64,000 nucleotides of DNA from a virus. Taxonomy: Duplodnaviria > Caudoviricetes. The notes beneath the pieces are model-generated. The model was not told the origin of the DNA, ran no database searches, and was given only the letters and a program-made list of their open reading frames with translations. Each line of letters starts with the position of its first letter. The stretch's first letter is position 1. The translations under genes and the position numbers were made by a program. The DNA is taken from the IMG/VR virus record IMGVR_UViG_2551306498_000001, positions 5,042 through 69,041 of that record; one strand, given 5' to 3'. Below are positions 59,099 to 62,190 of the stretch, piece by piece.

Positions 59099-59324
59099 GT
59101 AAATACCTCCTAAGTTTTATGAAGATAATCGTGATACTTTACTTTCTAAAAATACCATATAATACAATGTAAAAATATGACATGTATCACGTCGTATTTA
59201 GTCTTTAGCACCTCTTGAGATTTACTAAAGTTAATTCGGTTAAGATGTTACTACTCTCTCTCCCATGAGTGCTACTATAAAAATACCTAGTCTGTGTGAC
59301 TGGGTATTTTTGTTGTTGATTAAA

Positions 59325-59336
59325 GAACGTATGTTC
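59325..59336. promoter_or_regulatory. LexA (Cheo/SOS) box within a sigmaA promoter
   Basis: AGAACGTATGTTCG (GAAC-N4-GTTC) between TTGATT (59316) and TATAAT (59340). Confidence 0.8.
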
Positions 59337-59363
59337 GCATATAATATTCATGAGGTGATTTAC

Positions 59364-59648
59364 ATGCTAACGGATTATCAACGAAAGGTCCTTCGGATCT
59401 TATATAACTACAAAGGTGGACGGCGTAGGTTTCCTACAATCCATGAACTTACAGTTAAAACGGGTAAGCATAAGCCGGAGGTCTTGGCTGCTCTGGACGC
59501 TCTTGTGGCTGCGGAATACATACATTGGGAAGACAGGTCTGACACGGCCAACATAGTGATCTTGGAAGGCTGGGAACGTGAGGGAGAACGTCCCAAGGTG
59601 GACCACACACCATCGTCTGGGAACATTGACTATTGGACTCAATATTAA
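59364..59648 (+). CDS. Small winged-helix-like SOS-inducible protein
   Basis: MLTDYQRKVLRILYNY...PTIHELTVKTGK; ATG 59364 after GAGGTG. Confidence 0.7.
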   Translation: MLTDYQRKVLRILYNYKGGRRRFPTIHELTVKTGKHKPEVLAALDALVAAEYIHWEDRSDTANIVILEGWEREGERPKVDHTPSSGNIDYWTQY

Positions 59649-59660
59649 GGGGGGCTTATC

Positions 59661-59993
59661 ATGCGTAGCAGACTGAAGGAAAACGGGTTGTATGAGACAT
59701 CCAGGATGATTATGCCTGAACATAGAGAGGCATGGTTGGCTCAATGTGAACAACAGAAGAGACGCGGTAAGCCAGATCTGGACGATCAAGAGATACAACA
59801 GATCAGTGAAGTTTTAGTGGAGTCCTATAGTAGTAGCCGCACAGTTGATCTGGTGTTATTCAGCCCATTCGATGATGAGGATGTTTCCGGGATAGTTGTT
59901 GGACTAAATACGTCTCATCATAGAGTTAAGTTGATGTTAGAAGAAGAATATAGATGGATTCAGCTTGCGGAAATTATATCTGCATCTGTATAG
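59661..59993 (+). CDS. YolD-like protein
   Basis: 'SRMIMPEHREA', 'KPDLDDQEIQQI'. Confidence 0.85.
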   Translation: MRSRLKENGLYETSRMIMPEHREAWLAQCEQQKRRGKPDLDDQEIQQISEVLVESYSSSRTVDLVLFSPFDDEDVSGIVVGLNTSHHRVKLMLEEEYRWIQLAEIISASV

Positions 59994-60075
59994 CATTTGT
60001 ATGAATTTGGCTATGGAATTGCCACGTTGTCCTTTATAATAACTTTAAAAGTTATTTTAATTAGGATGGTGCCAA

Positions 60076-60738
60076 GTGGGGGTAATTGCTTATATCTTGA
60101 TAGGTGCATTTGATGTATTTGCTGTCCTGGCACTGATGTTGAGGCTTTATCGTTTGCCAGTAAGGGATAGATTTTGGGAAAAAATCATCTTTTCTGTTCT
60201 GGCCGCAGTAGCATCATATTTCATAAGGATTGTAATTGGAATACCTATGATAGATACTGCTGTGTTAATGCTCCTAGTTATACTATTTATGCGTTATGTA
60301 CTGGAGATCAAACTATTTTACGCGGCTCTCATGTCTAGCGCAGGTATGAGCGCGTATGTTGCTATTCAATTAGCGTTAGCTATGGGTTACATGGCTATCG
60401 GTGGCAATGCGCAGGCCGTTATAGTTGAGACGCATGGATACAAAGTTCAATTGCTTCAAATTACAGCGATATGTATTGCGTACATTGTCTCGTCGATAAT
60501 GACGCTGTTCCGTTGGGGATTCTCATTTGTACCTCTACCACCGCACGATTTCAATATTGAATTGGACTACTCTAAGAACAAGGGTCTTTTGATTACAACT
60601 ATCGGTGTTCTAATCTTCATTTCATTCGCTATGGTGTTATTGCTGAATTACATGATTGTGTTGTTGGTTCCAGCAGCCTTGCTGAGCTTCGGTATATCAT
60701 ATTATTTTTCAAACCGGAGGGATCTCCAAATTGATTGA
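60076..60738 (+). CDS. Polytopic (~7 TM) membrane protein, AgrC-sensor-like, with no kinase domain
   Basis: 220 aa, almost entirely hydrophobic, 'GFSFVPLPPHDF' loop; first gene of the agr-like operon. Confidence 0.7.
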   Translation: MGVIAYILIGAFDVFAVLALMLRLYRLPVRDRFWEKIIFSVLAAVASYFIRIVIGIPMIDTAVLMLLVILFMRYVLEIKLFYAALMSSAGMSAYVAIQLALAMGYMAIGGNAQAVIVETHGYKVQLLQITAICIAYIVSSIMTLFRWGFSFVPLPPHDFNIELDYSKNKGLLITTIGVLIFISFAMVLLLNYMIVLLVPAALLSFGISYYFSNRRDLQID

Positions 60739-61219
60739 ATTGGTATCACGTAAGTTTGCAATGTCAGTTAAACGTGCATATCCGCCGGCCAATGAGGAAG
60801 TAATAGCTTATGAGGTGGGACGGCAACTAAATCTTTATTCTATTGTTATATTGACAATAGTTTTTTCATTGTTAATAGGTCAATTAATTGGGTCGATTGT
60901 TGCCATGTGCACCTTTGCATTTGCCAGAAAAATTACTGGTGGGTTACACCTTAAGTTGACTCTGTGTACAATAGTTACTGTGTCATTATTCATAATAGCA
61001 CCTGTAATTCCCATGAGCACATTTAGTGTGGTAATATTAAGCGTGCTAGTATCCTTTTTTTACATGGGACTTAGAAGAGAACAGTCACGTTGGTTGATAG
61101 TGATCGTCAGCCTGGCTAACGTGAACATTCTTTCTTCAGAAATTACACTTGTGCTTATGGCGCAATTATTGTTGGTATGGGCGGCCAAGATAAAAGGAGG
61201 TGAAAACGTACATGAATGA
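60731..61219 (+). CDS. agrB: AgrB-family peptide-processing membrane protein
   Basis: 'MIELVSRKFAMSVKR...EVIAYEV', 'FARKITGGLH...LC' carrying the catalytic His/Cys pair of AgrB; multiple TMs. Confidence 0.8.
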   Translation: MIELVSRKFAMSVKRAYPPANEEVIAYEVGRQLNLYSIVILTIVFSLLIGQLIGSIVAMCTFAFARKITGGLHLKLTLCTIVTVSLFIIAPVIPMSTFSVVILSVLVSFFYMGLRREQSRWLIVIVSLANVNILSSEITLVLMAQLLLVWAAKIKGGENVHE

Positions 61220-61343
61220 AAAAATTGCCAAAATGTTATCTCTTAAAATCGAGCAAGATGCAGCCGATAAAGTAGATAGCAAGAAAGTGTTCATCGGATC
61301 ACAACCAGTTCCGGAGGCGCTTAAAAAGAAGAAGCAAAAGTAG
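61212..61343 (+). CDS. AgrD-like autoinducer propeptide (43 aa, not in track)
   Basis: MNEKIAKMLSLKIEQDAADKVDSKKVFIGSQPVPEALKKKKQK; RBS AAAGGAGGTG; overlaps the agrB stop; P-x-x-L tail like AgrD. Confidence 0.65.
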   Translation: MNEKIAKMLSLKIEQDAADKVDSKKVFIGSQPVPEALKKKKQK

Positions 61344-61351
61344 AGTGAATT

Positions 61352-61717
61352 ATGGATGAATTAAAGCATCATGTGGCTGGATCAAGAACGGTTGATGGCA
61401 AAGAAATTGGAGAGTATGATTTCTATAGTTTAGCGGAACTTTGTTACATAGATATGTTCTCTCCTAAAAAGAACTACCTTGTCCCTCACTATCATACGAA
61501 GCAATTATCCTTCAGTGATATTCGCACGTTTGAAGCATCTAAAAAGCTTTATCCGAATCTGGTGCAATTAGATAGTGGTTTACTAGTTAACATGGATCAA
61601 GTAGAGAAGATAGAGGAAACGAGGTTCGGCCTAATGGCTCACTTTTACGGTGGACTTCAACGAGAAATAGCGAAGAACAAGATCCACTTGGATTTTGTTA
61701 AAGACAAGCTGAAATGA
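61352..61717 (+). CDS. Stand-alone LytTR DNA-binding domain protein (no receiver domain)
   Basis: 'LVQLDSGLLVNMDQVEKIE' matches the LytTR 'F.R.H.S.LVN...I..I' region; 121 aa. Confidence 0.65.
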   Translation: MDELKHHVAGSRTVDGKEIGEYDFYSLAELCYIDMFSPKKNYLVPHYHTKQLSFSDIRTFEASKKLYPNLVQLDSGLLVNMDQVEKIEETRFGLMAHFYGGLQREIAKNKIHLDFVKDKLK

Positions 61718-61747
61718 ACCCGAGTTCTTCGAGAATCGGGTTTTTTT
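61717..61747 (+). terminator. Terminator of the agr-like operon
   Basis: AACCCGA...TCGGGTT followed by a T run. Confidence 0.8.
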
Positions 61748-61971: not shown

Positions 61972-62190
61972 TTAGGGTTCGATATGCCAGATATACAAAT
62001 CCTCAGCGTGGCAGTCGAGGATTTTCGATATAAGAACAGCGGCTTCGTAAGGCATTGGCTCACGATTATTGGCCCAGTTAGAGATACGTTGTGGCGTATA
62101 CCTGGTTCTCCGAGATAACTGTGCTTGAGTCGTACGAGCCTCCTTAATCCTAACTTTAAGCAGACATCTGCCCCGGGAGATTTTACTCAC
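61972..62190 (-). CDS. XRE-family HTH regulator (72 aa)
   Basis: 'TTQAQLSRRTRYTPQRISNWANN...ISKILDCHAEDLY'. Confidence 0.85.
   Translation of the reverse strand: MSKISRGRCLLKVRIKEARTTQAQLSRRTRYTPQRISNWANNREPMPYEAAVLISKILDCHAEDLYIWHIEP

Follow-up and report, generated by a model that had tools for sequence, protein, structure and literature searches.

In a Paenibacillus prophage, the small open reading frame behind agrB codes for a true AgrD-like precursor, a member of a lysine-type sub-family. We put the probability at roughly 0.45 that the adjacent AgrB cuts the peptide between Ile28 and Gly29 and that Lys25 closes a K-V-F-I lactam, a proposal drawn from sequence comparison and from analogy with S. 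aureus. Positions refer to the window, by which we mean the whole stretch of 64,000 nucleotides of viral DNA that was analysed; the operon genes, the ribosome-binding site, the peptide segments and the terminator given below lie on its + strand.

A conserved precursor gene coupled to agrB

The reading frame runs from an ATG at 61212 to a TAG at 61341–61343 and, as read from the window sequence, specifies 43 residues (MNEKIAKMLSLKIEQDAADKVDSKKVFIGSQPVPEALKKKKQK). The features on which the original prediction had been built are all present in the sequence, namely a strong ribosome-binding site (RBS), an overlap with the agrB stop, the absence of Cys, a charged leader and a poly-Lys tail. The Shine-Dalgarno sequence AAAGGAGGTGA (61193–61203) is read directly 8 nt before the ATG and inside the 3′ end of agrB; we take it to match the anti-Shine-Dalgarno sequence over 11 nt, and homologous loci carry RBS-like sequences at the equivalent place. 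The ATG overlaps the AgrB stop codon (TGA, 61217–61219) by 8 nt on the same strand, and placement of the peptide gene after agrB is common to all related loci. The peptide contains no Cys, carries a net charge of +5 over its whole length and ends in KKKKQK after QPVPEAL. The AgrD models of Pfam and NCBIfam miss it, with no family reported at E ≤ 1.

A search of 401 Paenibacillaceae genomes with the AgrB protein gave a match in 222, and in every one of the approximately 30 best-matching loci an ORF of 40–46 residues, alignable with the window peptide, overlaps or directly follows the AgrB stop. The small ORF is under purifying selection, with dN/dS of 0.14–0.28 in 10 of 12 pairs (those with computable dS). 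Furthermore, a family profile built from 27 peptides and run against 1.84 billion representative proteins (E ≤ 0.001) retrieved 56 clusters at 50% identity, nearly all Cys-free, of which 55 keep a K-x3-G motif. From the synteny and alignment across some 30 loci, the dN/dS values and the 56 profile clusters, we conclude that the ORF is a real, conserved and selected coding gene, translationally coupled to AgrB. This bears out the earlier proposal of an unannotated AgrD-like precursor coupled to AgrB. The RefSeq annotation of ten family members, all in Paenibacillus records, reads "hypothetical protein" in each case. Ala17, Lys25, Gly29 and Pro34 are invariant in the family alignment (Gly29 among K-x3-G peptides), and Ala6 and Leu37 occur in at least 90% of members.

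Several members depart from the common pattern. P0047 has Met at the otherwise invariant Lys position (GRMFVIGARPLP), and P0056 has a Cys directly after the Gly (KTWYGCIKIP). P0060, a 206-aa database protein ending in ...KTLLGAQKLPAELENLKKETK, joins AgrB and AgrD in one frame, either as a natural fusion or because the overlap was read through. At locus L028 (G005:C22) two AgrB genes lie side by side, each with its own Lys-type peptide gene behind it, and at L025/L060 (G040:C6) extra matches to the membrane protein and AgrB lie downstream of the first cassette, with no clear second peptide ORF.

The leader (M1–K24, 61212–61283) consists of a cationic, predicted amphipathic helix, in which the alignment places the near-invariant Ala6 and the invariant Ala17, and then a basic linker. 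Lys-type precursors have a mean net charge of +7.6 and leaders with a GRAVY of −0.53 that contain no membrane-like stretch; the leaders of Cys- and Ser-type neighbours are hydrophobic, with a GRAVY of about +1.1. The helical moment of the cationic Lys-type leaders, which have no hydrophobic stretch, is comparable to that of the Cys and Ser types, averaging 1.60 across the family versus 1.34–1.38. The leader had been described as charged rather than amphipathic; the charge is a true family trait, but the leader is also predicted to be amphipathic. MAFFT placed AgrB N-termini (MIE.LSRK.A.SIKRA.P) on Lys-type leaders (MK.KLAR.LS..L.KSA.KS), aligning window positions 60731–60790 with 61212–61270, and both are cationic amphipathic helices. 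The resemblance could be chance, or the leader could mimic or derive from the AgrB N-terminus.

Register of the conserved lysine and the AgrB partner

With 60 further AgrB loci added, 97 non-redundant AgrB-adjacent peptides were anchored on the Pro of their C-terminal P-x-x-L. The nucleophile lies at −10 from this Pro in 46 of the 97 (13 Cys-type and 33 Ser-type peptides). Lys lies at −9 in 51/51 Lys-type peptides and in 0/46 of the Cys and Ser types. Position −10 of the Lys type is variable (R, K, A, N, T, L, E, P and others; Lys24 in the window peptide), and position −5 is Gly in 49 of the 51. In S. aureus AgrD, with C28, P38 and cleavage at M32|D33 (residue numbers from PMC10196373), the cut falls at −6|−5. 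The tail register of the window peptide (P34-E-A-L37) is common to Cys/Ser-type AgrDs and to S. aureus AgrD, although the tail is basic, not acidic. The canonical Cys (rarely Ser) at −10 is absent from the window peptide, and the invariant Lys25 at −9 is found instead. Lys25 is the proposed ring-closing nucleophile of a predicted core, K25-V26-F27-I28 (61284–61295), which is followed by the recognition tail G29-SQPVPEALKKKKQK and stop codon (61296–61343), with AgrB predicted to cut at I28|G29; the alignment finds Pro34 of this tail invariant and Leu37 nearly so.

Judged by sequence, Lys at −9 recurs in a second lineage. L033 (KPWA|HSPEAPKEL) and L034 (KPAA|YSPEIPKEL) combine it with a canonical-looking tail and form a subtype with the pattern KP-x-A-[H/Y]-SPE-x-PKEL. 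Gp46 of Brevibacillus phage Abouo likewise has Lys at −9, together with Gly at −5. By our own count, ring closure through Lys would involve 7 atoms plus 3 × 3, or 16, and closure through Cys 4 atoms plus 4 × 3, also 16. The side chain of Lys exceeds that of Cys by three atoms, so a nucleophile shifted one residue toward the cut keeps a 16-atom ring, and we regard this equal ring size as the strongest argument that Lys functionally replaces Cys or Ser. A Thr or Ser just after the Lys was also considered as the nucleophile and rejected, since only about half of the members have one and the window peptide has Val.

Ser-type AgrDs (T-A-S-x4 | [YHN]-Q-x-x-x-P-E-E-L-L; L035, L036 and many of L075–L123) outnumber Cys-type AgrDs in the Paenibacillaceae loci read, by 33 to 13, or 32 to 9 without the outgroup. 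Ser lactone autoinducing peptides (AIPs) are called rare in the literature. Several changes between Ser and Cys labels are seen along the AgrB tree.

The partner enzyme (60731–61219) is a short-form AgrB-family membrane cysteine peptidase of 162 aa whose PF04647 score, 32.5 bits, exceeds the cut-off of 23. Its R66, G70-G71, H73 and C79 include the equivalents, R66/G71/H73/C79, of the required S. aureus AgrB residues R70/G75/H77/C84 (PMC10196373). Arg, Gly-Gly, His, Thr (T77) and Cys are invariant across 27 AgrB homologues, and R-x3-GG-x-H...C is retained in the AgrBs of all three peptide types. The profile match and the conserved catalytic Arg, Gly-Gly, His and Cys identify the upstream ORF as a true AgrB, and it is the sole one in this 6.66-Mb Paenibacillus genome. 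A sequence search for a solved AgrB structure found none.

The AgrB also co-varies with peptide type at the sequence level, although common ancestry confounds this pattern. A branch with 97% SH-aLRT in the maximum-likelihood tree separates the AgrBs of K-x3-G peptides from those of Cys and Ser types together with the two KP-subtype AgrBs, those of L033 and L034, which are sister to all other members of the Cys/Ser clade; the peptide label changes on the tree number 2 for Lys, 5 for Ser and 5 for Cys. Ahead of the catalytic Cys, (L/I)-T-x-C is found in 45 of 49 K-x3-G AgrBs, and the position is variable elsewhere. The suggestion of a co-evolved processing enzyme finds a counterpart in an AgrB from a separate tree branch with its own active-site loop signature. 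The H-x5-C spacing that had been singled out in this AgrB is read correctly (H73-x5-C79, one residue shorter than in S. aureus) but is a sub-clade trait and not a mark of the chemotype: among Lys-type AgrBs it is x5 in 16/51, x6 in 34/51 and x7 in one, and the 34 with H-x6-C rule it out as a marker. Cys- and Ser-type AgrBs have x6 in all but one, which has x7.

Set beside S. aureus AgrD/AgrB, the window has in common a small precursor gene right after agrB, the AgrB Arg, Gly, His and Cys, the Pro-x-x-Leu tail, a cut five residues before the Pro (predicted for the window) and a hydrophobic pair before that cut. It differs in lacking Cys, with Lys at −9 where S. aureus has Cys at −10, in a basic rather than acidic tail, in a cationic and soluble rather than hydrophobic leader, in the H-x5-C of its AgrB and in a cassette without an AgrC kinase or an AgrA receiver domain.

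Proposed ring closure and competing explanations

In the proposed mechanism, Cys79 of AgrB would attack the I28–G29 bond, the equivalent of S. aureus M32|D33 and, as placed by analogy, five residues before the anchor Pro. This would free the basic tail GSQPVPEALKKKKQK and leave the remainder bound to AgrB in a thioester. In place of a Cys thiol or a Ser hydroxyl, the epsilon-amine of Lys25 would resolve the acyl-enzyme and yield a four-residue, 16-membered K-V-F-I ring with an isopeptide (lactam) bond from Lys N-zeta to the Ile28 carbonyl. The cationic leader would next be trimmed by some protease, and the peptide exported. We infer every step after translation from sequence and analogy. Sortase pilin assembly and transglutaminases offer a precedent in which Lys amines resolve thioacyl-enzymes, and the recurrence of Lys at −9 in L033/L034 and in Abouo gp46 favours the lactam. 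A lysine amine is mostly protonated and would need activation, and P0047, with Met at the Lys position, also speaks against it. Moreover, the cut site is placed by analogy; cleavage after Gly29 would give a 19-membered ring. The invariant Lys could instead serve receptor binding, leader processing or AgrB recognition. As the leader is not hydrophobic, its presentation to AgrB at the membrane may differ from the S. aureus model.

A precursor free of Cys cannot form a thiolactone, and the sequence bears out the earlier point that the ring would need some other closure. The closure named there was a lactone through Ser23 within D-S-K-K-V-F-I-G, and aligning the small ORFs downstream of AgrB homologues, the check that had been suggested for it, found the ORF conserved and P-x-x-L kept but no conserved Ser. 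In favour of this closure, AIPs with a lactone formed through Ser are described (PMC8251862), Ser-type AgrDs are common in Paenibacillaceae (33/97), and two residues ahead of Lys25 the window peptide indeed carries a Ser. This Ser, however, lies at −11 instead of −10, and apart from the window only L003 and L004, its closest relatives among the loci read, retain it, while Lys25 is invariant. L005 (EDAKVFIG) and L006 (TTNKVFIG) have no equivalent, and neither do most other members; no hydroxyl residue is conserved between leader and Pro. With an S. aureus-like cut, moreover, Gly29 would be the first residue of the removed tail and no part of the ring. We regard a lactone ring S-K-K-V-F-I(-G) as very improbable.

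A possible, though doubtful, reading is that no ring forms. AgrB would remove only the C-terminal tail, and hydrolysis of the acyl-enzyme would release, as the signal, a linear cationic peptide with Ile28 (or Gly29) as its last residue, Lys25 being kept for receptor binding or N-terminal processing. The family offers no Cys or conserved Ser/Thr for a (thio)ester, the precursors are as strongly basic as the mean charge given above indicates, and many linear Gram-positive pheromone precursors are highly basic; the Met of P0047 would also be accommodated. Hydrolysis would nevertheless leave unexplained why two separate lineages hold a Lys precisely one residue closer to the cut than Cys or Ser, and why a hydrophobic pair precedes the cut as in AIP rings, and the AgrB retains the full catalytic set for transfer chemistry. 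The soluble, cationic, non-membrane-inserting leader, the absence of a recognisable exporter or kinase receptor from the cassette and an uninformative membrane-protein fold would in turn suit a peptide that is not an exported signal, acting inside the producer as an AgrB-processed regulator of the membrane or LytTR protein, or as a membrane-active cationic prophage peptide. We consider this unlikely, given that, within this bacterial family, ordinary AgrDs of the Cys and Ser types, whose leaders are hydrophobic, come with an identical cassette architecture and that AgrD-like tail recognition is kept. The Cys-type AIP of P. polymyxa, ICFGLF, is a proven extracellular signal (PMC12180512).

The Lys25 lactam would stand apart from the nearest characterised products. 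Ser-lactone AIPs are described for the S. intermedius group, for E. faecalis (GBAP) and for H. thermocellum (cited in PMC8251862). These and the Ser-type Paenibacillaceae AgrDs resemble the window peptide in their Cys-free precursors and AgrB-family processing, and the Paenibacillaceae ones also in their cassette (membrane protein, AgrB, AgrD and often a LytTR-only protein). They differ in that their Ser is conserved at −10 and their AgrBs fall in another branch of the tree; the Lys type has no conserved Ser. Clostridial homodetic cyclopeptide AIPs arise by an S-to-N acyl shift (PMC8251862). Together with synthetic lactam AIP analogues, they have in common with the proposed product an all-amide macrocycle from an AgrB-made acyl intermediate. 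The clostridial peptides, however, need an N-terminal Cys, a thiolactone intermediate and a head-to-tail amide, whereas the amide proposed here would form directly through the Lys side chain.

A kinase-less prophage cassette and its relatives

The cassette lies within the prophage, between lysis genes and integrase, and opens with a multi-helix membrane protein of 220 aa (60076–60738; phrog_15604 'membrane protein', 2.6e-42) whose stop overlaps the AgrB start. Irrespective of peptide type, a homologue stands directly upstream of AgrB in 19 of the 20 loci whose 10-kb flanks were examined and in the majority of the remaining Paenibacillaceae loci read. The AF2 model (pLDDT 72.5) has 8 helices, 7 of them long. 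The protein gave no match and no kinase domain against Pfam and NCBIfam, no match to the PDB by sequence, and only unnamed clusters in the Atlas. Compared with known structures, the model returned only generic helical-bundle matches (best Z 8.0, the rest below 7). No CPBP-type or other protease motif is conserved in the protein. We infer that the membrane protein is a candidate sensor or partner of the LytTR protein.

Downstream of the peptide gene, a stand-alone LytTR DNA-binding protein of 121 aa without a receiver domain is encoded at 61352–61717. Its Pfam LytTR match (PF04397) is 17.4 bits, below the cut-off of 22.6; the AF2 model (pLDDT 88.9) identifies a LytTR fold, as the Foldseek top 10 are all LytTR domains (3d6w, AgrA 4g4k/4xqj/3bs1 and ComE) at probability 1.0, with TM 0.6–0.73 for LytTR-only chains and a clear gap to the next match. 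An intrinsic-terminator-like hairpin with a T-run (61712–61747; inverted repeat AAATGAACCCGA / TCGGGTTTTTTT) closes the four-gene operon. Neither an AgrC histidine kinase nor an AgrA receiver (REC + LytTR) is present in the window operon, and the conserved cassette holds no other modifying enzyme and no recognisable exporter. Sensing would do without a kinase; by analogy with the LytTR Regulatory Systems described below, the likely sensor is the membrane protein and the likely regulator the LytTR protein that lacks a receiver. The prophage would thereby bring its host its only agr-like system.

Related cassettes vary around this plan. In L053 (5653–6387), L055 (5652–6380) and L049 the downstream regulator is a tandem LytTR-LytTR protein of 242–245 aa, again without a receiver, and in L053 a further LytTR gene of 130 aa follows it. 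In prophage-borne cassettes the stretch upstream of the membrane-protein gene contains a conserved palindrome-like TGGCTATGGAATTGCCA and, after it, TATAAT (window 60006–60052; also L043, L044, L049 and L050). By its sequence it is a candidate operator/promoter, unlike the direct repeats usual for LytTR proteins. The cassette is flanked, at 59265–59993 and 61972–62190 (− strand), by genes for an HTH protein, a YolD-like protein (PF08863, 65 bits) and an XRE repressor. These flanking genes are syntenic in the closest loci (L043–L045 and L049), which argues that the whole block travels together in related prophages.

Similar cassettes are found in P. larvae phages Harrison and Paisley and in Brevibacillus phage Abouo, where AgrB stands beside a membrane-protein gene and adjoins the integrase. 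As read out, Harrison (gp38–41) and Abouo (gp44–47) have the four genes in the same order, and Harrison gp40 (...KVFLGSQPLPKEL) is of the K-x3-G type; AgrB identity is approximately 35%. In the phage papers, 'accessory gene regulator B' appears only as a table entry (PMC5056774, PMC4168068). Harrison gp40 is annotated as hypothetical, and only Abouo gp46 carries the name cyclic lactone autoinducer peptide. Harrison gp41 (L063:3148–3501) and Abouo gp47 (L064:3151–3516), and likewise phrog_15081, are labelled 'peptidase' in GenBank and PHROGs but are LytTR domains (Pfam, 29 bits, above the cut-off), and the label is likely a propagated misannotation. The LytTR Regulatory Systems of S. mutans (HdrRM/BrsRM, PMC6193735) resemble the cassette in pairing a receiver-less LytTR regulator with a multi-pass membrane protein and in having no phosphorelay. 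They differ from it in that the window gene order is reversed and interrupted by agrBD, that the window membrane protein has no Pfam family where HdrM has DUF2154, and that no peptide ligand or AgrB is described there; in those systems the cognate membrane protein inhibits the regulator.

To our knowledge, all characterised agr signals are closed via Cys or Ser, some of them rearranging to head-to-tail amides. In the open literature searched, we found no account of a lysine-based, lactam or isopeptide AIP, nor any of AgrD in Brevibacillus; the AIPs it yielded were only thiolactones, lactones and products of S-to-N rearrangement. Paenibacillus has a single characterised AIP, the Cys-type ICFGLF (PMC12180512). 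As the Lys-type peptides whose annotation was consulted are labelled hypothetical proteins, genome mining that recognises AgrD by a Cys or Ser may count too few of the agr systems of Paenibacillaceae.

We advance only tentatively the wider idea that Paenibacillaceae and their temperate phages may use an undescribed class of agr signal, a 16-membered lysine side-chain amide made by AgrB, with phosphorelay-free sensing by a seven-helix protein that would control a bare LytTR regulator. In this prophage, the cell-to-cell channel would then belong to the phage rather than to its host. A natural Lys-closed lactam, if true, would be a third ring chemistry of the same enzyme family, would make AgrB an isopeptide-forming transpeptidase and would provide chemically stable, hydrolysis-resistant natural AIP scaffolds. 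The kinase-less cassette, found with Cys-, Ser- and Lys-type peptides and in phages of honey-bee pathogens, is a tractable model for a LytTR regulator under peptide control without phosphorylation, and for phage-owned peptide communication outside the arbitrium type.
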